Source: Limnochordia bacterium (GTDB taxonomy: Bacteria > Bacillota > Limnochordia > DTU080). Taken from it: a stretch of 64,000 nt of DNA. The translations under genes were made by a program, and so were the position numbers. Location: contig JBMNJG010000016.1 of NCBI GenBank assembly GCA_050951545.1, forward strand, positions 1 through 64,000, written 5' to 3'. Below, in pieces: positions 3,515 to 44,113 of this stretch (within the stretch, counting starts at the first letter, position 1; each line of letters begins with the position of its first letter). The notes beneath the pieces were generated by a model. The model was given only the letters and a program-made list of their open reading frames with translations. It ran no database searches and was not told the origin of the DNA.

Positions 3515-3616
3515 CTACAGCGTACAGCCGGCTACGGGCACAGATCGAGTGAAAAAGGTGCCAAAATAAAACCGCCAGCCGTTCATTAAGCTACTGTTCA
3601 CTCCGCTCTGCACCAC
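3515..3616 (-). CDS. Aromatic amino acid leader peptide MVQSGVNSSLMNGWRFYFGTFFTRSVPVAGCTL
   Basis: Strong RBS GAGAGGAGG, GTG start, a W/F/Y/F/F/F codon cluster, and a stop just before the terminator. Confidence 0.8.
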   Translation of the reverse strand: MVQSGVNSSLMNGWRFYFGTFFTRSVPVAGCTL

Positions 3617-3686
3617 GTTCGCCTCCTCTCCTCAGTGCAACATCGACAGTGTGCGGCTCACATCCACCAAGCCTTATGTAACCCTG

Positions 3687-3715
3687 ATTATACGTCTGCA
3701 ACCTATGGAGGTCAA
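3687..3715 (-). promoter_or_regulatory. sigma-A promoter for the leader-aroF transcript
   Basis: TTGACC-17 bp-TATAAT on the minus strand. Confidence 0.8.
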
Positions 3716-3756
3716 GCGCCATCGTGTGGAACATGGTCTCTCTGCGTAATGTTAGC

Positions 3757-3891
3757 CTAGAAGTCCCCTGGATCTCCTGGGTCCGGCCAAGGAATCCAGT
3801 CGGCGATGTTGCGCGAAAACAAGAAGACACAGGCGCTGCCCAATAAACACAGCTTAATAATACCAAGACGCACATCCGCTGAATCTATCAC
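3757..3891 (-). CDS. Small secreted-type peptide, candidate RRNPP signalling propeptide (44 aa)
   Basis: RBS AGGGGG then GTG. Sequence MIDSADVRLGIIKLCLLGSACVFLFSRNIADWIPWPDPGDPGDF has a hydrophobic core and an acidic Pro/Gly tail. Divergent from the HTH-TPR gene. Confidence 0.55.
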   Translation of the reverse strand: MIDSADVRLGIIKLCLLGSACVFLFSRNIADWIPWPDPGDPGDF

Positions 3892-4061
3892 GGTTCGCCC
3901 CCCTGCTTATCAAAACTCGCTACTTTTGTTAACCATATCACCAAACCGGGGGTGCCGTCGATATACCCATCGGCATATTCCTTTGCGTTTGACTAACGAA
4001 TGTGCTAACCTGAGAGTGATGATGCATACTCCTATACCTGCTTAGCAGGAGGGGATATCCC

Positions 4062-5357
4062 TTGGCGCGAGCCGATCGTACTACCCTTGCCCGCCGTATC
4101 AAGGCACGCCGCCTCGAACTGGGTCTAACCCAACGAGAAGTGGCCGGGGAGGATTTCACTAGAGGGTTCATCTCGCAGGTTGAGAATGGGCTCATCGACC
4201 CTTCACTTAAGTCGCTGGAAATCATCGCACAGCGTCTTGGTAGCCCGATCAGCTACTTCCTAGAAGACTCTGACGCTGTAGATCCTGTCGCCGTGGAGAC
4301 TTCGGTGCGCCACACATACGACTTACTCGACAGCGACTTAGAGGCAGCTGCGGCTGCGGCTGCTGTGGCACTCTCAGGGGCCGAACGGCTGGGTAACCCG
4401 GCCTTGCTGGCTCGGGCACGCTCCGGGGCGGCCTGGGTAGCCTACTACAACGAAGGCTACTCTGAGGCGGCCAGTCTGTTTGGGTTGTCTGCCGAAGCGC
4501 ACCGCACAGCTGGTAATCTCACCCAAACGCTTAGGGCCCTCAATGCAGCGGGAACTGCAGCCCACAGAGCAGAGGATTATCCTGCTGCAGCAACCTACTA
4601 CACCTCGGCTCTTGAGCTAGCGCGCACCTTGGAGGAACCTGGGGTTACCGATCACTTGCGGATCCTGGTAAACCTGGGGCTCTTGCTTACCCATCAAGAA
4701 AAGACAACCGAAGCGACGAGCTACCTGCAACAGGCGTTAGAGTTGTCGATCGCTCACAAAGAGTACTATCGACACGGCGAAGTCCACAGCGCCTTGGGCG
4801 TGAACCATCGACGCTTGGGTAACATCGACAAAGCCATCGATCACTATCGACAGGCTTTCCAGTTCTATCAGGCTGTGCAAGAGTCCTTGCATGCGGCTCA
4901 TGCCGTGCTGAATTGTGGCAATGCCTACGCGGTGAGCGGCGAATATGCCCAAGCGCGTCAGCTTCATAACCGCGCCCTCCAGACCTACGAAGAGCTGGGC
5001 GAGACAGTACACGCGGCGAACGCTCGTGCCGAACTGGCTACCGTGGCATGGCATGAAGGTCACTTGGAAGAGGCAAGCAGCTTGGCTGAGGCAGCCTTAG
5101 AGCATCTTACCGACGAGAAGGAGCGCGGACGAATGCTCGTCATGAAAGCGCGCGTTCTTGCAAAAGAAGAAGAGATCGCCGCCGCGGTGGACCTGTACCG
5201 TCAGGGCCTGCCGCTGCTTGGTGAGAACGAAAACACGAAGGACATCGCGGAAGCCTGCTACGAACTCGGCGATCTACTAATGCGGCAGGGAAAAGCTGGA
5301 GAGGCCAGCCCGTATCTGGCTCGCGCAGCTGGTTTGTACCGCCGCCTGAAAGGATAG
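4062..5357 (+). CDS. XRE-HTH plus TPR-repeat transcriptional regulator (RRNPP-like)
   Basis: N-terminal IKARRLELGLTQREVAG...ISQVENG...PSLKSL HTH followed by multiple TPR-like helical repeats; AGGAGG RBS. Confidence 0.9.
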   Translation: MARADRTTLARRIKARRLELGLTQREVAGEDFTRGFISQVENGLIDPSLKSLEIIAQRLGSPISYFLEDSDAVDPVAVETSVRHTYDLLDSDLEAAAAAAAVALSGAERLGNPALLARARSGAAWVAYYNEGYSEAASLFGLSAEAHRTAGNLTQTLRALNAAGTAAHRAEDYPAAATYYTSALELARTLEEPGVTDHLRILVNLGLLLTHQEKTTEATSYLQQALELSIAHKEYYRHGEVHSALGVNHRRLGNIDKAIDHYRQAFQFYQAVQESLHAAHAVLNCGNAYAVSGEYAQARQLHNRALQTYEELGETVHAANARAELATVAWHEGHLEEASSLAEAALEHLTDEKERGRMLVMKARVLAKEEEIAAAVDLYRQGLPLLGENENTKDIAEACYELGDLLMRQGKAGEASPYLARAAGLYRRLKG

Positions 5358-8168: not shown

Positions 8169-9650
<1,482 letters not shown>

Positions 9651-9713
9651 CTACTGTTCCATTGATGTTCGCTAAGTGGGCTCCACAGTCCTCTTAGGAT
9701 CATATCTTGCCCC

Positions 9714-9741
9714 TTTCATTCGTGAATAGATCTGCTATAAT
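9714..9741 (+). promoter_or_regulatory. Extended -10 promoter for the riboswitch-pdxS transcript
   Basis: TGcTATAAT at 9733-9741, about 18 nt upstream of the aptamer. Confidence 0.7.
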
Positions 9742-9758
9742 GAGCATGTGAAATATGT

Positions 9759-9897
9759 GCCTTCGGGGAACGGTGCGGCAGTGATGCCAATTCCTTGCCG
9801 GTGGTAATGCCTCCAAGAAGAGGATTAGCCCATCAGCCCCAGCAGTCGATCCGGTGAGATTCCGGAGCCGTCAGTTACAGCCTGGTTGGGAGAAGGT
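9759..9897 (+). ncRNA. FMN (RFN)-fold riboswitch aptamer, variant ligand pocket
   Basis: Landmarks in the expected order: CTTCGGGG...GGTG...AATTCC...CCGGTGGT...AGCCCA...GATCCGGTGAGATTCCGGAGCCG(T)CAGT...AG(C)CTGG(T)TGGGAGAAG. P1 is GCCTTC/GAAGGT. Confidence 0.88.
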
Positions 9898-9938
9898 CTC
9901 GACGCGTCAGCCATCGCTACGCGCAAGCTTCTGTACCC

Positions 9939-9963
9939 CGGTCGCCATAGGCGGCCGTTTTTT
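9939..9963 (+). terminator. Intrinsic terminator, riboswitch expression platform
   Basis: CGGTCGCC-ATA-GGCGGCCG-TTTTTT between the aptamer and the pdxS RBS. Confidence 0.8.
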
Positions 9964-10012
9964 GTTCCGCATGCCCCGTTAGGCACCCACAAACCAGATG
10001 GAGGGGTTGGCG

Positions 10013-10903
10013 ATGAACAAGACACGACGAGCAGTTCGAGACGTCAAGCGGGGACTCGCTGAAGGACTCAAAGGTGGCGTCATTATGGATGTCACCAATG
10101 CCGATCAGGCTAAGATCGCTGAGGATGCCGGTGCGGTGGCCGTCATGGCCTTGGAACGCGTACCTGCCGACATCAGGGCCACTGGTGGCGTAGCACGTAT
10201 GAGCGACCCAAGCATGATCGAAGCGATTCAGGCGACAGTCAAGATTCCCGTCATGGCCAAGGTACGCATCGGCCACTTCGTCGAAGCCCAGATTCTGCAG
10301 GCCATGGCCGTGGATTTCATTGACGAAAGCGAGGTCCTTACCCCGGCCGACGAAGAGAACCATGTCGACAAGTATGCCTTTGACACGCCTTTTGTGTGTG
10401 GGGCTCGTAATCTAGGGGAGGCACTGCGCCGCATTGCAGAAGGGGCGGCGTTGATCCGCACCAAAGGGGAAGCAGGCACTGGTGATGTCGTGGAAGCGGT
10501 CCGTCACATGCGAGCAATCACGGGCCAGATAAGGCAGCTTACTACCATGCAACCCGAGGAGCTGGCCACTGCCGCCAAGGAGCTCGGTGCCCCGCTGCAC
10601 CTGGTCATCGAGACAGCCGAGACTGGTCGTCTACCGGTCCCAAACTTCTCCGCTGGCGGGATCGCCACCCCAGCTGACGCCGCCCTGATGATGCAGCTAG
10701 GAGCAGAGTCAGTCTTTGTCGGATCCGGCATCTTCAAGTCGGAAGACCCTGCCCGCCGAGCGAAAGCTGTCGTAGAGGCTGTTTGTCACTATCAGGACCC
10801 TGCAGAGCTACTTCGCATATCGCGGGGTCTGGGTGAGGCCATGCGCGGCATGCAGGTATCCAGCATCAGCAGTGAGCAAAGACTAGCCCAACGCGGCTGG
10901 TAG
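10013..10903 (+). CDS. pdxS: Pyridoxal 5'-phosphate synthase lyase subunit
   Basis: [49 protein letters not shown]-terminal RGW. Confidence 0.98.
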
Positions 10904-10974: not shown

Positions 10975-13431
10975 TCAAAAGAACGCTGTCCACGCACTCT
11001 CGAGCCCGGACGCCCTGTAGTCGCCGTCTCCACTAGGGCTTCCTGTGACGTCAGTGTGACCGCCCACGGTCAGCTGTGATTGGGCACCGACCTGCCACCG
11101 CGCTGTCACGCGGCCACGTTGCTCAAATGTCACGCCCATTACCGCCCGTCTTGCCGAGCGAGCGAATGAGGCCTCCAATTGCGTACCGTCGACGCTAAAC
11201 GAGCCCGTCAACTCACCCCTCCAGACGGTGGCTTCGGTCTCCCAGTCCCTTCCTACTCGCATCTGCACCCGCGCATGTGGCGTGTAATACTGGCTGCTCC
11301 AGCTCAGTCGGTGTCCCACAGGAACGGTGCGTAATGAACGCTCCTCATCACCTTCGTTATCTGGATCTGGGCTATCGAGGCGAGGTTGCTCCAGAACGCC
11401 CGCGGTCAAGGTGATCTCCGTCTGCCACTGCGGCCTTGTCAGTGCCAGTCCATGCACTCGCTGCACGCCGCGCTGCTCTCCCAGCATGTCTCGTTCACCA
11501 AAGGCAAAGCATGCGCCTTGATAGGCCAGGTTCTTCCAAAGAGGTTGAATGATCTCGACACCGTAACTCGTTCGGTGCTGCAGCTCATCCGCCAGGACTG
11601 GGCTGTCGCGGGAGACAGAGGAACGACCTGCGGCCAGCACCTTCACGCTCATGCCATTGCTCTCGTAGTGGGTATTCACCTGGATTGCCGTGTCGCCGTG
11701 GAAAGACATGTCGTAACCACGGCGGCGCTTCAGCTCCACGGAGGCTCCAGCGGAAAGACCGAGAATGGCAAGAGGAACCTGGCCTTCTGCTCGCACATGC
11801 GCCACTTCTGAGGACGATAGCTGGATGCTTTCGCTGCTACCTCTCCCTGCACGGACCATCTCACTTTGCAGCCATTGTACTCGCCACCACGCCCGCGACG
11901 AGGAAGCGGAACTGGTTGCCTTCACGCGCCACACCGTCGAGGCATCAGGGAGATCCCCGCCAGGCTGACGACGATCTTGCTTCCACTGGACTGCCGCCCC
12001 TAGACGAGCATCGTCAGTTAGCTGCGCCTTGAACTGTGTAGATGACAGCAGCTCCCCCGGAGCACGTGCGCCCTTGCAGGCGAGCAAACCCCGTCGCTCG
12101 GCCTGCACCTCCCATCTGCCCAGTCTCCGCTGGGCCAGGACCCCCATCGTGACTCCACTGTGAGATCGGCCATCACTCTGGTGCCCATACATCCCCAGAC
12201 TCCATCCCACCAGACCTCGTTTCGAGATATATGACAGAACATGCTCCGCTTGCAGTTGCAGCTGAACTGGTTCGTCGCAGGCTAGCGGATCCATCGGCGT
12301 CTGACGCCATAGGACATTGAGCTTACTATGCCAGGGTGCGAGAAAGCCCTGGTAACCCGCTGTGAAGAGCCGATAGTCGGCGCCATCGGGCAAGTGGCCT
12401 AGGGAATGAAAACCGGACGGAACGGCACGGTAGTCGAAACCAGCCTGAACCTGTCCCAGCAGCCACGTCCCTCCGAGCTGCCGAGCGATGACATCGTGAG
12501 ATTGCGGCCGCGTTTCAGTAGTACCAAGCAACCATGAGGCACTGAGGTGAGAGGTAGGCGTTGGATGCCATCCGACAGCCGCCCCTCGCAGGCTCTGATC
12601 TGGTGGTAGTCCTACTGGTGAGGATTCGAGACCATAGGCCCGTTCGTTACCAGCCAGCAAATCAAGGCCGAACGAGCCATTGTCCCAGTGCGCTGCGGCC
12701 ACAGCAGTTCTTCTGGCCTGAGCCGCTTGGTACTCGTACACCACATCAATCCTGGAGTCCTCCAACACAGGCTCTCGGAAAGTGATGGCCCCAAGCTCGT
12801 AATCGATCGCGTAGTCAATCTCGGGCTGCAATAGCTGCCCATCGACGCTGACACGCTCAGAACCTTCCACAACTGGCACATGTAGCCCGTTCAACAGATA
12901 CGGCCCAACCAGTCCGCGACCTGACAGCTGCTCACGCATCGGCACTCCGAGCGGCTCACCGATAGCAGCCCGTACCCGCAATTTCCCAGCAGCGTTTGCA
13001 GTTACCTGACCCTGAACACCTGTGAGAAGCCGCTCCCAGGCCAGCAGGCCCGGAGCAGCAGCAGAAAAGCGCCTGCTGCCTGCAAACAGCTCTGCATTCG
13101 TCCCATGTATAAGCAACTCCAAACGCTCAGGCACTGGACGCGTGTCGTCATAGCTACCGTCGTAAGCCCAACCTCCGGGCAAACTCCCTCCGCCACGCAA
13201 AGCCAGGTGCTGGCGCAGTTGCCATCCGGCCTGTTTGCCTGTCTCCAGACGATACCGCTCGCTGTCGCCCTCGAGGGCAGTGCTCTCCAAGCTAAGCCGA
13301 TAACGCCCCGCCATGCTGCTGTCGACACGACTTTCGGCCCAGGCCACACAAGAGGCTGCGACTGCGGCAAACAGCAACCCCCACAGCAGCCAAAAGGAAG
13401 AAGCTACTACGCGCTCCCTAGGCTTGGCCAT
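10975..13431 (-). CDS. Putative outer-membrane beta-barrel protein with SprA-like segment
   Basis: Signal peptide; VVEGSERVSVDGQLLQPEIDYAIDYELGAITF segment; alternating beta-strand pattern; C-terminal Phe. Confidence 0.6.
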   Translation of the reverse strand: MAKPRERVVASSFWLLWGLLFAAVAASCVAWAESRVDSSMAGRYRLSLESTALEGDSERYRLETGKQAGWQLRQHLALRGGGSLPGGWAYDGSYDDTRPVPERLELLIHGTNAELFAGSRRFSAAAPGLLAWERLLTGVQGQVTANAAGKLRVRAAIGEPLGVPMREQLSGRGLVGPYLLNGLHVPVVEGSERVSVDGQLLQPEIDYAIDYELGAITFREPVLEDSRIDVVYEYQAAQARRTAVAAAHWDNGSFGLDLLAGNERAYGLESSPVGLPPDQSLRGAAVGWHPTPTSHLSASWLLGTTETRPQSHDVIARQLGGTWLLGQVQAGFDYRAVPSGFHSLGHLPDGADYRLFTAGYQGFLAPWHSKLNVLWRQTPMDPLACDEPVQLQLQAEHVLSYISKRGLVGWSLGMYGHQSDGRSHSGVTMGVLAQRRLGRWEVQAERRGLLACKGARAPGELLSSTQFKAQLTDDARLGAAVQWKQDRRQPGGDLPDASTVWRVKATSSASSSRAWWRVQWLQSEMVRAGRGSSESIQLSSSEVAHVRAEGQVPLAILGLSAGASVELKRRRGYDMSFHGDTAIQVNTHYESNGMSVKVLAAGRSSVSRDSPVLADELQHRTSYGVEIIQPLWKNLAYQGACFAFGERDMLGEQRGVQRVHGLALTRPQWQTEITLTAGVLEQPRLDSPDPDNEGDEERSLRTVPVGHRLSWSSQYYTPHARVQMRVGRDWETEATVWRGELTGSFSVDGTQLEASFARSARRAVMGVTFEQRGRVTARWQVGAQSQLTVGGHTDVTGSPSGDGDYRASGLESAWTAFF

Positions 13432-13435
13432 GCGG

Positions 13436-15586
13436 CTACGCTCCGCTGACGCGCAGGATCTTGACCCGACGCTCAGCAATTCGAAGATCAAGCTCCAAGG
13501 CATCCGCCTGTATGGAAGCTCGCTCCGTCAGCCGGAGGTGAAGGAGCGCCCGTGGACTCTCCGTCGAACCTTCGATCTGCACCGTGCCGTGGACCGCCCC
13601 GTCAACCAAGGCCGCTGGGATCCTGTGGCCCCCCATGGCAAGTAACGAAGAGAGTGACTGATCCGCTATTCGCAGATTGATAGCCAGCCGTTTCGTACCG
13701 CCTATGTCGAGGATCTTTCCGCTCATCCACCATGAGCCTCCATCCGCGGTTGTCGCCGCTAAGCCTGGACTCTCTAGATCACGCCCATCATAGCGGATAG
13801 CTCCCTCCAACCGCTGTAGCACCCCCTTACCAAGGTTCACATGACGGGCCACCAGCTTGCCTGCAAGGTAAGGACTGGTAACCGAACCGCCTACCTCGCC
13901 CGACCAAGAGAGCAGGCCTTGGCCTAGGTGTGCGTAGTGGATCGCCTCCAAAGGCCAGTCATTCATGTCAACGCTCAACCGCAAGAAGGCGCCGTCAAGG
14001 GCCGCTGAACCATCCACAACCAGGCTTCCTTGGCCGGAGAAAGCGCGTACATCGCGAAGGCGAAGTTCTCCATCACCCCAACGAAACGCTCCTTCGGCCT
14101 TCGGGACAAACTCGCCAAAAAGCTCCACATCCCTCACAGTGACATCCCCACTACTGATAACCGCGCCAAAGGGACCTTCGAAAGATAGGGTGCCGTCGAG
14201 GTGACCCTCCGCATCCACATCGACACCTAAGACGGCAAACAGCTGCTCAATGCGACCCTCGCTCGCTTGCAGGTCTATAGAGAGGCTGGCAGCCTGCACA
14301 CCGCTTAATCCTGAAACAACGCCCTGCATCTCGTAACGAGCATCACCGCTTTTCACATGCACATCGTCAAAACCAAAGCGGTCGATGCTAAGCCGGATAC
14401 GGCCTTGAACCTCACTGACAGGTTCATCCCATAGCGTCCCGTCGCGAAGTACCACACGACCTGCCAGCACGGGATTAGACACGTCTCCGGTAAGCTTGCC
14501 TTCGAAGGCACCAGTCCCTCTTATTCCCCAAGTCTCCAAGTGCGGGATATCCGCAGGCACACTCAACTCGCTTGCAGAGACCTCGATAGCCAGCTTGCCC
14601 TCGCTAAGCTGCCCCTTTCCCATCAGGCGTCCCGAGGCAGACAGTAGCTCAAGATAATCGAACTCCCACGAACCAGCGAGCATGGAGAATCTAGCCTGGG
14701 CCCCCACGAGTGGTAAAGGCTCTTCGAATGGCCATTGAGATGAGAAGAGCCTAGCTCCCTCTATCGAAGCCTGACCCCTCACTTTGGGACAGCGCCATGG
14801 GCCCTCGGCTATCAGATCAGCAGACACGGTGCCGCGCCCTTGCACAGCCACGGCAGGGACGTACTTACACAGATCAGTGGCTAGCCAGTCGGCAACACGC
14901 AGATGGGCCGTCAGCATCCCCTGCGCATCCACGTCACCATCGGCTGACAACTGGCCCGCTCCCCGACTGACATCGAGACGCTTTACCCGCAGCGTGTTGG
15001 CAGAGCTATGGAGAGCGAGCTCAAATCGCAGTGACTCAGGAGCGTCATCGCCCGACCAGATAAGCTGCCCTCGCCGCACGACAACAGCCGCTTGCGGCCA
15101 ATCAGGCGTTCTCCCCTGAGATCCCACCACATCGCTAGCCGCCCTCTCCTGACTTCCTTGGCTTGCGCTAGCCCCAGCTGTCTTGGGCAGCAAGCTACCT
15201 ATGAAGCTGAGACAGCTCTCAGAATCAAGAGTGATACGAGGTGAGATAAGGGAAATCTGCCGAAGACCTGCTAAGGGTCTTCTCCCTAAGATGGCAGAAA
15301 GACTGAAACTCAAGTGCACCCGGTCAACAGTGACTGGCTGAGCAATGACCCCTTCGTTCCTAGGCGTCAAAACCACCTGCTCCAGTACGAGACGCAAAGG
15401 CCCATCGAAGCGCGCCTGGCCAATCTGTACGTGCAAAGGCAACTGAGTCTCGAGGAGGGCTGCCGCCTGGCGAGCAAGGGTAGTCGGCAGAGACCCGCGG
15501 TTGAGAAAGAGCGTCGCCATAGCGACGCTGACTGTGAGTAAGAAAGCGACGGCTACACAGCTTCGCCACCCACTGAGACGGATCAT
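13436..15586 (-). CDS. AsmA-like/TamB-like repeating beta-groove protein
   Basis: N-terminal TM anchor and repeated G.l.G.l..P.l.G beta-taco-type motifs. Confidence 0.65.
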   Translation of the reverse strand: MIRLSGWRSCVAVAFLLTVSVAMATLFLNRGSLPTTLARQAAALLETQLPLHVQIGQARFDGPLRLVLEQVVLTPRNEGVIAQPVTVDRVHLSFSLSAILGRRPLAGLRQISLISPRITLDSESCLSFIGSLLPKTAGASASQGSQERAASDVVGSQGRTPDWPQAAVVVRRGQLIWSGDDAPESLRFELALHSSANTLRVKRLDVSRGAGQLSADGDVDAQGMLTAHLRVADWLATDLCKYVPAVAVQGRGTVSADLIAEGPWRCPKVRGQASIEGARLFSSQWPFEEPLPLVGAQARFSMLAGSWEFDYLELLSASGRLMGKGQLSEGKLAIEVSASELSVPADIPHLETWGIRGTGAFEGKLTGDVSNPVLAGRVVLRDGTLWDEPVSEVQGRIRLSIDRFGFDDVHVKSGDARYEMQGVVSGLSGVQAASLSIDLQASEGRIEQLFAVLGVDVDAEGHLDGTLSFEGPFGAVISSGDVTVRDVELFGEFVPKAEGAFRWGDGELRLRDVRAFSGQGSLVVDGSAALDGAFLRLSVDMNDWPLEAIHYAHLGQGLLSWSGEVGGSVTSPYLAGKLVARHVNLGKGVLQRLEGAIRYDGRDLESPGLAATTADGGSWWMSGKILDIGGTKRLAINLRIADQSLSSLLAMGGHRIPAALVDGAVHGTVQIEGSTESPRALLHLRLTERASIQADALELDLRIAERRVKILRVSGA

Positions 15587-36450: not shown

Positions 36451-36525
36451 TGGCTCCCCGGGCTGGACTCGAACCAGCAACCACCCGGTTAACAGCCGGG
36501 TGCTCTACCATTGAGCTACCGAGGA
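36451..36525 (-). tRNA. tRNA-Asn(GTT)
   Basis: TCCTCGGTAGCTCAATGGTAGAGCACCCGGCTGTTAACCGGG...GGTTCGAGTCC...GGGAGCCA. Confidence 0.97.
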
Positions 36526-38326: not shown

Positions 38327-38894
38327 GGCGAGCTACTCTCCCGCGCCTTCAGCTGGCCTTTGCTTCGCAAAGTCTCAGCTGTGGCACCGGTTGCCCAGGG
38401 GCAACCCTGTGAGCTCCAGCAAAAGCAAACGTCCCGCACTTGGCGGGACGTCTAAGGGTTTTGCCGGCGGCGAGCTACTCTCCCGCGCCTTCAGCTGGCC
38501 TTTGCTGCGCAAAGTCTCAGCTGTGGCACCGGTTGCCCAGGGGCAACCCTGTGAGCTCCAGCAAAAGCAAACGTCCCGCACTTGGCGGGACGTCTAAGGG
38601 TTTTGCCGGCGGCGAGCTACTCTCCCGCGCCTTCAGCTGGCCTTTGCTGCGCAAAGTCTCAGCTGTGGCACCGGTTGCCCAGGGGCAACCCTGTGAGCTC
38701 CAGCAAAAGCAAACGTCCCGCACTTGGCGGGACGTCTAAGGGTTTTGCCGGCGGCGAGCTACTCTCCCGCGCCTTCAGCTGGCCTTTGCTTCGCAAAGTC
38801 TCAGCTGTGGCACCGGTTGCCCAGGGGCAACCCTGTGAGCTCCAGCAAAAGCAAACGTCCCGCACTTGGCGGGACGTCTAAGGGTTTTGCCGGC
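38327..38894. repeat. Four tandem 142-bp repeats carrying the 5S rRNA 3' end and terminator hairpin
   Basis: Units start at 38327, 38469, 38611 and 38753 (GGCGAGCTACTCTCCC). Identical except for one T/G site. Confidence 0.95.
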
Positions 38895-39005
38895 GGCGAG
38901 CTACTCTCCCACAGGGTTGCCCCTGCAGTACCATCACCGCTGGAGGGCTTAACTGCCGTGTTCGGGATGGGAACGGGTGGGTCCCCTCCGCCATTGCCAC
39001 CGACA
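38888..39005 (-). rRNA. rrf: 5S rRNA
   Basis: CCCGTTCCCATCCCGAACACGG, GATGGTACTG and GGGAGAGTAG on the minus strand. Ends approximate. Confidence 0.95.
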
Positions 39006-39083
39006 AAGTCTCCAGGTGCTGTGCACCCTCACAACTGCACAGAAGATAAGATGACGATTGCTGCCTGAGAGCTTACTACTTTT

Positions 39084-42068
<2,985 letters not shown>

Positions 42069-42334
42069 GATTAAGCCCGCGTGTGCTCTTTTGAGCCACG
42101 CTAGGTTTGTAAGTCTCCTCAGGCAACTAGGAGTCGCCATGATGGTCGAGGGACCATCAAACGATCTCCATACACACCTCACCGCGTCGATGTCAGTCGC
42201 GGCAGGTGTGTGTATCGTCACCTTTTCTCCTCTGTGCAGTTGTCAAGGTGCAAAGACTGCTCCAGTCCCTGGCAACTAAACAGCGTACATCAGCAAGGGC
42301 CGACCTAGGAGTAGCCAAGACTGACCGCCTTGGC

Positions 42335-43856
<1,522 letters not shown>

Positions 43857-44113
43857 CTGGTATCATTACGGTGCTAGGCACCGGAATAATCTTGGATGCT
43901 TACCTGGCTTCTTCGAAATTACTCGTAGAAGCTCGCACCTCTCAGAGTTGCTACTCCGAGAAGTGTTCATAGGTTTCTCAAGCTCGCTACCAATCCATTA
44001 CGATCGGCGCTCGCTTTCCCTTGCTTCTTTTTGCACGCTGTTTAGTTGTCAAGGACCAGAGTGTGCCGCCCGTTAAGCGCTTCTCAAAGCAGTGCTCTCG
44101 AGGCAGCTTGTGC

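Follow-up and report, generated by a model that had tools for sequence, protein, structure and literature searches.

The pdxS leader of the window carries an FMN-fold RNA

The 64,000-nucleotide (nt) stretch of Limnochordia DNA analysed here (hereafter the window) contains, upstream of pdxS, the gene for the lyase subunit of pyridoxal 5′-phosphate (PLP) synthase, a leader RNA related to the flavin mononucleotide (FMN) riboswitch. All features of this leader lie on the forward strand. A preliminary description, made from the sequence letters, had proposed that the leader contains an FMN-fold aptamer with a pocket remodelled for a phosphorylated vitamin B6 compound and that it switches pdxS off. 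Direct reading of the sequence showed the extended −10 promoter named there (TGcTATAAT, 9733–9741), which was not listed by a consensus promoter scan because the scan also demands a −35 match; the transcript is predicted to start a few bases 5′ of the aptamer. Downstream of the aptamer, and likewise as described, a terminator scan found an intrinsic terminator at 9939–9963 (stem CGGUCGCC/GGCGGCCG, loop AUA, then six U residues), followed by pdxS at 10013–10903. The terminator hairpin (9939–9957) has an 8 bp stem with seven G-C pairs, precedes a T6 stretch and yields −14.4 kcal/mol when folded alone. PdxS was identified by NF003215 (502.7 bits, cut-off 395) and TIGR00343 (470.5 bits). The longest open reading frame (ORF) spans 9998–10903, the likely start being the ATG at 10013 after the ribosome-binding site GGAGGGG at 10000–10006. 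As 112 nt separate the end of the aptamer from this start, the aptamer sits in the pdxS 5′ leader.

The presence of the RFN landmarks, as the elements of FMN riboswitches are called, was borne out by cmscan (Infernal), which aligned 9755–9901 (+) end to end with the FMN riboswitch family RF00050 (model positions 1–138 of 138, 63.5 bits, E-value 3.1e-14). The score is just under the gathering score of 66.2 bits, and a default gathering-threshold scan therefore missed the element; no Rfam 15 family other than RF00050 matched the region, even at E-values up to 10. Based on this match, on a covariance model of the variant (R1, described below) and on covariation, the aptamer extends from 9756 to 9901 and comprises helices P1, P2, P3, P5 and P6 without the P4 hairpin. 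The 5′ strand of P1, GCCUUC (9759–9764), and its 3′ strand, GAAGGU (9892–9897), were placed by the RF00050 alignment and by compensatory changes in the P1 pairs; the 5′ strand and the adjoining J1/2 GGGG (9765–9768) together form the likely switching sequence. Folding of 9745–9975 as a single sequence gave z = −0.54, and as the folding energy is thus uninformative, support for the fold was taken from covariation.

FMN numbering was mapped to the junctions by means of the available parts of PMC6298564 and PMC3201879, and the ligand contacts that the preliminary description had named (A48, A85, A99 and G10, G11, G32, G62, G84) agree with the former. The substitutions it had aligned by hand were reproduced by Infernal. 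Position 85, an A that stacks on the flavin in canonical FMN switches, is U in the window (9871; CCGUCAG where the consensus has CCGACgG), and positions 98 and 99 (9885–9886), canonically G and A, are G and U (GGUUGGG where the consensus has GGAUGgg). Near G47/A48 the window reads CCCAUCAG where the consensus has CCCGCGAg, with C9834 for G47. The five G residues that contact the phosphate and ribityl chain are all kept in the window (G10/G11 at 9765/9766, G32 at 9800, G62 at 9848, G84 at 9870) and largely kept across the class described below. The stretch 9834–9848, CAGCCCCAGCAGUCG, constitutes a variant-specific core in which C9834 stands in the place of G47, A9835 corresponds to A48 and G9848 to G62, and in which GCCCCAGC (9836–9843) replaces the P4 hairpin. 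A second RFN element, of the canonical type (95.3 bits), is located on another contig of the same assembly directly upstream of ribD; the source organism thus combines a conventional FMN switch, for riboflavin synthesis, with a divergent second element at pdxS.

The element belongs to a variant class found in several phyla

Low-scoring RF00050 matches in related genomes shared a common core, GCCCAUCAGCCCCAGC, replacing J3/4-P4-J4/5, and the elements bearing it lay upstream of PdxS-like or small membrane ORFs. A covariance model, R1, was built from 15 aligned variants with Rfam-derived helices, leaving out the candidate new helix discussed below; it gives the window element 141.9 bits, by construction, as the window is one of its seed sequences. 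Among 95 genomes of the window's class, R1 detected the variant in 19, which represent 6 of the 16 families; 15 of these 19 also carry a canonical RFN element. An exact scan for the variant-specific core, run on one genome per prokaryotic species and separately on metagenome contigs, returned 49 stretches from the species genomes (44 confirmed by R1) and 23 from the metagenomes (22 confirmed, 11 of them new sequences). With identical sequences removed, 59 unique elements were obtained, 15 of them R1 seeds and 44 outside the seed. Five stretches in metagenome-assembled genomes (MAGs) of Chloroflexota and Alphaproteobacteria (L092, L093, L101, L109 and L133) were not confirmed by R1 and were treated as chance matches.

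To judge by the record titles, the variant occurs in Limnochordia/Limnochordales, Symbiobacterium (including S. thermophilum), Thermaerobacter marianensis and Halanaerobiaceae/Halanaerobiales, as well as in Candidatus Fermentithermobacillus and several unclassified Bacillota and Clostridia MAGs. The Atribacterota contributed three Candidatus Caldatribacterium records, one Atrimonadaceae genome and one MAG from an uncultured member. Three further R1-confirmed elements (L097, L104 and L122) lie on contigs of MAGs labelled Ignavibacteriales, Bacteroidota and Pseudomonadota, a placement that could be due to mis-binning or horizontal transfer. Of the 15 variants of the window's class that were scored with RF00050, 7 pass the gathering score and 8 do not; such leaders are therefore probably annotated as FMN riboswitches in public genomes.

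Vitamin B6 genes follow the variant and riboflavin genes follow canonical elements

The downstream genes were examined by a strand-aware tblastn search covering 2.6 kb behind every one of the 59 elements, 56 of which had usable downstream sequence; behind the other three the contig ended after 0, 0 and 176 nt. PdxS was encoded downstream of 25 variants, with PdxT next in 21 of these, and the substrate-binding S component of an energy-coupling factor (ECF) transporter, of the PF07155 type, downstream of 30. Locus L098, alone among the 56, is followed by a class-V aminotransferase (PF00266), a family of PLP-dependent enzymes. Vitamin B6 genes thus follow all 56 variants with usable sequence, and at the 55 loci where tblastn gave a hit, the 2.6 kb behind the variant contained no RibD or RibU-type gene. 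As a control, 42 unique canonical RFN elements, from the window's class plus one from an Atribacterota contig, were treated in the same way: 18 precede RibD and 24 a RibU-type S component, and PdxS, PdxT or a variant-type S component was downstream of none of the 42. Of the 36 genomes in the window's class that have pdxS, only 11 use the variant leader.

Some individual loci may be mentioned here. On one Atribacterota contig (L118) the two kinds of element lie about 3 kb apart, the variant (848–998) upstream of pdxS-pdxT and a canonical RFN element (3991–4135) upstream of a RibU-type S component. Genome G004 has two pdxS copies, C126:13131–13748 and C116:11998–12609, and only the one on C116 has the variant leader. 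In L098, from Candidatus Fermentithermobacillus carboniphilus, the variant with its terminator occupies 3762–3928 and the aminotransferase ORF 3913–5283. In L087 the PF07155 S component (3607–4086, reverse strand) lies 664 nt from the aptamer with a 122-amino-acid (aa) ORF between, and is followed by an AIR-synthase-related protein (PF00586/PF02769).

The S components linked to the two kinds of element belong to different families. Those behind the variant match PF07155 at 103–144 bits and are under every specific NCBIfam cut-off, that for RibU included; those behind canonical elements match PF12822 at 72–111 bits. PF07155/COG4720 is the family of PdxU and PdxU2/HmpT, the characterised S components for B6 vitamers (PMC9997740, available part). 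The sole relative of a variant-linked S component in the Protein Data Bank is 4HZU chain S (E-value 1e-19), which is HmpT/PdxU2 of Lactobacillus brevis and from which pyridoxamine was the substrate extracted, the HmpT substrate having been debated between hydroxymethylpyrimidine (HMP) and B6 forms (PMC4860826, available part). In genome G029, which has both element types, the S component behind the canonical element gave matches to RibU structures (3P5N, 5KC0 and 5KBW; E-values 5e-24 to 1e-19). By these relationships the variant-linked transporter appears to be of the B6 type.

Covariation demonstrates selection on the fold

Covariation was assessed in an alignment (A3) of 50 rows, 49 of them distinct and one canonical, with a structure of 34 pairs. 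Standard pairs occupy 98.6% of the cells versus 88.9% in shuffled alignments, cells that are not independent events as the sequences are related; 18 of the 34 pairs show double-sided changes, and none of 500 shuffles reached any of the five covariation measures. When partner columns were slid against each other, pairing fell to 33–55%. Examples are a P6 pair (nt 118–128) found as G-C 24, A-U 23 and C-G 1 times, the P5 closing pair (U-A 22, A-U 9, G-C 9), a P3 pair (nt 47–77; U-A 33, C-G 14), the pair 74–112 (C-G 40, U-A 7, U-G 1) and a P2 extension whose three pairs have 9–22 double changes each. The P2 extension, one P3-extension pair, the pair 74–112 and the new helix described below are absent from R1, and the alignment was therefore not fitted to them. 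A non-Watson-Crick coupling between L3 and L5 (nt 51/105; G/A 40, A/U 7) indicates that the L3-L5 loop-loop contact is kept. The fold of the class is under selection.

RNAalifold further predicted a helix that is absent from the FMN model, between CYCA (in the window CCCA, 9838–9841) within the replacement of P4 and UGRG of J6/1 (in the window UGGG, 9887–9890; FMN numbering 100–103). Each of its four pairs is formed in all 47 sequences with letters there, and the variable pair occurs as C-G 22, U-G 21, U-A 4 and C-A 0 times. We consider this helix likely, though not proven, from these pairing counts. In FMN switches U100 is flipped out, and residues 101–103 are second-shell and become less flexible once ligand is bound, as described in the accessible part of PMC3201879.

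These data bear on one explanation of the window element, namely that it is a decaying, non-functional relic of an FMN riboswitch standing upstream of pdxS by chance, to which the score of the window copy under the Rfam gathering threshold and its unremarkable folding energy would correspond. The preliminary description had named substitutions unique to this genome and randomly placed as the sign of such decay. What we found were 59 unique copies spread over distant lineages. Their new core is invariant, every helix shows compensatory changes, pocket positions change in a coupled manner (see below) and the gene association is strict, by which the relic explanation is effectively refuted.

The flavin side of the pocket is altered throughout the class

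The pattern used to score pocket positions was applicable to all but two of the 59 variants (57) and all but one of the 42 canonical elements (41). Position 85, A in all 41 canonical elements, is A in 44 variants, C in 8, U in 3 and G in 2. At position 98 the canonical elements all have G, the variants A (48) or G (9), and position 99, again invariably A in the canonical set, is A in 28 variants, U in 15, G in 12 and C in 2. The combination A85/G98/A99 was present in 41 of 41 canonical elements versus 0 of 57 variants. All 59 variants have C for G47, J3/4 being CA in 54 of them and CC in 5, and A48 is thus usually kept. Canonical elements have GA here in 23 of the 37 scored (by a rough pattern), as does the Rfam consensus. 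In all 59 the P4 hairpin is replaced by the 8 nt GCCYCARC (GCCCCAGC in 28, GCCUCAGC in 28, GCCUCAAC in 3). The signature of the class is the change of G47 to C, a P4 hairpin given up for GCCYCARC, absence of the A85/G98 combination, and with it of the canonical A85/G98/A99 set, and a free position 99. The window element has C9834, GCCCCAGC at 9836–9843, U85 together with G98, and UGGG at 9887–9890 complementary to CYCA; of the marks of canonical FMN switches it lacks the P4 hairpin, the A48/A85/A99 set (it has A48, U85 and U99) and control of a riboflavin gene.

The preliminary description had asked whether homologs with the pair A85U/A99U track with B6 genes. Collection of the homologs upheld the association with B6 genes, at 56 of 56 loci, and not the proposed signature: 44 of the 57 scored variants have A at position 85, and the bases at position 99 are mixed, so A85U/A99U was rejected as a mark of the class and typifies the window's own family.

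Position 85 is perfectly coupled to nt 89 (A9844 in the window): the 34 elements with A85 have G89, and the 13 with C, U or G in its place have A89. Moreover, G98 was found only together with a pyrimidine at position 85. These couplings at 85, 89 and 98 argue for structural compensation around the former flavin slot. Position 99 has all kinds of base in both gene classes, pdxS-linked and S-component-linked. In FMN switches A99 reads the edge of the flavin, according to the available part of PMC6298564, and because position 99 varies freely in the variant, flavin is apparently no longer the ligand; this is the strongest argument that the sequences provide. Regarding position 98, the accessible part of PMC3201879 writes 'A98 and A99' for the Fusobacterium nucleatum aptamer, whereas the Rfam consensus and the 41 canonical elements here have G98. 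If F. nucleatum truly has A98, FMN binding is possible with A85/A98/A99, and A98 in itself is not foreign to FMN switches.

The variant could nevertheless still be a sensor of FMN (or riboflavin) that places B6 genes under flavin control. The fold and the phosphate-contact G residues are retained, most members keep A48, A85 and A99, 7 of the 15 scored variants of the window's class pass the FMN gathering score, and the Pfam name of PF07155 is that of a riboflavin S component. Yet no riboflavin gene accompanied the variant at the 55 loci where tblastn gave a hit, while the same genomes use canonical RFN elements for ribD or RibU, and the S components at variant loci resemble HmpT and not RibU. 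A99, invariant in the 41 canonical elements scored, is kept by 28 of 57 variants; the window has U at both 85 and 99, and neither G47 nor P4 is retained in any of the 59. For PLP synthesis by PdxST no flavin is needed. Taken together we consider continued flavin sensing very improbable.

A proposed terminator-based expression platform

In the comparison across loci, a terminator was scored as a hairpin with a folding energy of −9 kcal/mol or lower and four or more U residues behind it, located between aptamer and ORF. Such a terminator-like hairpin is present in the window and in 13 of the 22 loci examined. Several leaders are very G+C-rich and have no U-run; in these it may be translation that is controlled. 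As judged by eye, homologs often have a terminator whose 5′ arm is a perfect complement of the P1-5′/J1/2 sequence CUUCGGGG; L108 and L098 both show CCCCGAAG, and in L129 CGUUCCCCG stands against CGGGGAACG. This arrangement is that of the classical FMN design, in which residues 6–11 are the switching sequence (PMC3201879, available part).

For the window, the preliminary description had suggested that UGUACCCCG, just before the terminator, could pair with CGGGGAAC at the 5′ side of the aptamer. Such pairing is indeed possible: 9763–9773, reaching from P1 over J1/2 into the 5′ strand of P2, and 9931–9941, its candidate anti-terminator partner, form 6+4 bp around one A/A mismatch with a duplex energy of −15.0 kcal/mol, and the pairing overlaps the bottom 3 bp of the terminator (9939–9941). 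In intrinsic terminators, loss of pairs beside the U-tract is expected to impair termination. We propose that, with ligand bound, P1 and J1/2 would be locked in the aptamer, the terminator at 9939–9963 would form and transcription of pdxS would stop; with ligand absent, the P1-5′/J1/2 segment (9763–9773) would pair with 9931–9941, the bottom terminator pairs would be removed and pdxS would be transcribed. The element would then act as an OFF switch for pdxS or, elsewhere, for the importer, a logic that suits an end product such as PLP. A different anti-terminator on the 3′ side, formed by J6/1 and the P1 3′ strand with CUUCU-gua-CCC (9928–9938), was demoted to a secondary possibility. It looks neat by eye in L106 and L091. 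In the window, however, the minimum-energy structure contains it alongside the complete terminator, and it is not enriched across loci, with p ≤ 0.05 in 2 of 45.

The direction of switching also has a bearing on whether the RNA senses a metabolite outside the B6 family, such as a thiamine pyrimidine precursor, a PdxS substrate, e.g. ribose 5-phosphate, or some other compound. HmpT was first predicted to carry HMP, and its substrate was debated between HMP and B6 forms (PMC4860826, available part); a phosphate site would, furthermore, suit many phosphorylated metabolites. A substrate sensor, however, would be expected to switch its gene on, and the architecture looks like OFF. No thi genes were seen downstream, though no search was aimed at them, and vitamin B6 is the sole theme common to pdxS-pdxT, the PdxU/HmpT-family transporters and the PLP-dependent aminotransferase. 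A ligand outside the B6 family is therefore unlikely.

A phosphorylated B6 vitamer as the probable ligand

From the foregoing, the RNA at 9756–9901 probably represents a conserved, previously undescribed FMN-fold variant class which controls B6 supply genes, and whose likeliest ligand is a phosphorylated B6 vitamer, with PLP as the best candidate. As the theme common to the entire regulon is vitamin B6, a B6 ligand is favoured, and retention of the G residues that hold the phosphate of FMN speaks for a phosphorylated vitamer; PLP is the coenzyme and end product of B6 metabolism. Pyridoxine 5′-phosphate (PNP), pyridoxamine 5′-phosphate (PMP) or an unphosphorylated vitamer could also be the ligand. 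With a confidence somewhat better than even, we take the more specific position that this is the first natural PLP (vitamin B6) riboswitch class, derived from a remodelled FMN aptamer and governing pdxST synthesis and PdxU/HmpT uptake across Limnochordia, Symbiobacteriia, Halanaerobiales, Fermentithermobacillus and Atribacterota. In such a riboswitch the phosphate-binding G cluster would have been kept and the flavin slot rebuilt by the change of G47 to C, by the helix between the P4 remnant and J6/1 and by the coupled positions 85, 89 and 98. The interpretation of the preliminary description, an FMN-fold aptamer with a pocket remodelled for a phosphorylated B6 compound and turning pdxS off, is in its essentials supported by all computational tests run, with the signature corrected as above.

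Several points weigh against this reading. Both the ligand and the switching are what we infer, the ligand from gene context only. In PLP the ring is far nearer to its phosphate (one carbon away) than is the flavin in FMN; one may speculate that the former flavin slot is filled by RNA, through the contacts at 85, 89 and 98, and that the new core holds the ring nearer to the phosphate site. Many members, e.g. the Caldatribacterium copies, keep A48, A85, A99 and the phosphate G residues, and to judge from these positions might retain some residual FMN binding. The CYCA/UGRG helix has one variable pair, with the U-A form in about three lineages, and more generally the sequences of the class are related, so that counts overstate the number of independent events. 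Concerning the switching mechanism, the 5′ segment is more complementary to the leader than in mononucleotide shuffles at 14 of 45 loci (p ≤ 0.05; about 2 loci expected), but this test is a crude one, and the best site it gave in the window differs from the pairing of 9763–9773 with 9931–9941. The terminator forms in every low-energy structure of the isolated 3′ region of the window, and the anti-terminator competes for its bottom 3 bp only. Finally, all eight genomes of the window's class with the variant before an S component gave no PdxS match (PF01680; completeness 77–96%), which fits import replacing synthesis, but this is weak evidence, the eight representing about three lineages and 59 of the 95 genomes having no pdxS in any case. 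Four genomes without the variant, two of them of the window's genus and the others G019 and G057, also had no pdxS match, and G022 has pdxS and no variant.

Relation to known regulatory systems

The variant shares with the FMN riboswitch (RF00050) helices P1, P2, P3, P5 and P6, the J1/2 GGGG, G62, the L3-L5 contact, the 2 bp closing helix (C31-G84, G32-C83) and a terminator-based OFF platform with P1-5′/J1/2 as the switching sequence. In contrast to it, the variant has no P4, has C for G47, carries a GCCYCARC able to pair with J6/1 and has lost A85/G98/A99; at the loci examined it is always associated with B6 genes and never with riboflavin genes. A precedent for a new specificity on the FMN scaffold exists in the rare FMN variants of subtypes 1 and 2, which, as described in the available part of Atilho, Perkins and Breaker 2019 (PMC6298564), have the FMN fold, fall within RF00050 and reject FMN. 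As in the present class, both pocket and gene association have changed in these. There, however, the G residues contacting phosphate and ribityl chain are changed to A and positions 48, 85 and 99 are kept, and the genes, in Clostridium and Atopobium, are COG3601 transporters (subtype 1) or MFS/MATE multidrug efflux pumps (subtype 2). The B6-linked variant keeps the G residues and changes the flavin side, and its genes are pdxST and PF07155/COG4720 transporters. Other variants with a switched ligand (guanine to xanthine, 2′-deoxyguanosine or 8-oxoguanine; S-adenosylmethionine to spermidine) are described in the parts available of PMC9295807, PMC10556655 and PMC10853860; they too are folds that were re-tuned and revealed by gene context, on scaffolds and with ligands different from those considered here. 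Feedback control of PLP synthesis genes by PLP, as proposed here, is known from the PLP-binding MocR-type regulator PdxR (PMC5320631, available part), which is a protein and not an RNA and has no sequence relationship to the variant.

A 2022 review (PMC10043782, available part) places PLP first among the unexpected gaps, as a coenzyme without a validated riboswitch class, and considers evolutionary reasons for this; few other near-universal coenzymes are in the same position. No report of a B6/PLP riboswitch was found in the searchable literature, which leaves most subscription journals outside, and the supplement of Atilho et al. or the S5 dataset of Gutierrez-Preciado et al. might include some of the elements. 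In the part available, Gutierrez-Preciado et al. 2015 noted the oddity earlier in a single genome; the searchable literature contained no follow-up to this sighting. If confirmed, the class would close the PLP riboswitch gap and would demonstrate that retention of its phosphate site allowed the FMN aptamer to be adapted to a coenzyme of unrelated chemistry. It would also lend regulon-based support to PdxU/HmpT homologs as B6 importers in these phyla, correct annotations that file these leaders as FMN riboswitches and offer a natural B6 sensor for engineering.

Further observations on the window

The pdxS of the window stands alone, as no match to PdxT (PF01174) was found anywhere in the assembly, which is 93.9% complete. 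Within the window's family, 4 of 4 variant-linked pdxS genes have no adjacent pdxT, whereas the 21 others have one; PLP synthase in this family may use free ammonia. Four sequencing runs labelled as metatranscriptomes hold parts of 9650–10400 as contigs, in which strand and transcript ends are invisible and DNA is possibly present. One of these contigs spans 9787–10003 with 0 differences, and another, from a run flagged as probably DNA, covers 9771–9957.

Divergent from the pdxS leader lies guaB, encoding IMP dehydrogenase (8169–9644, reverse strand; TIGR01302, 636.5 bits), and convergent with pdxS is an 842-aa ORF (10975–13503, reverse strand) with a weak SprA-like match only. The window further contains a complete rRNA operon (5S, 23S and 16S; 38888–43858, reverse strand) and two tRNA genes, at 2422–2505 on the forward strand and 36454–36525 on the reverse strand.

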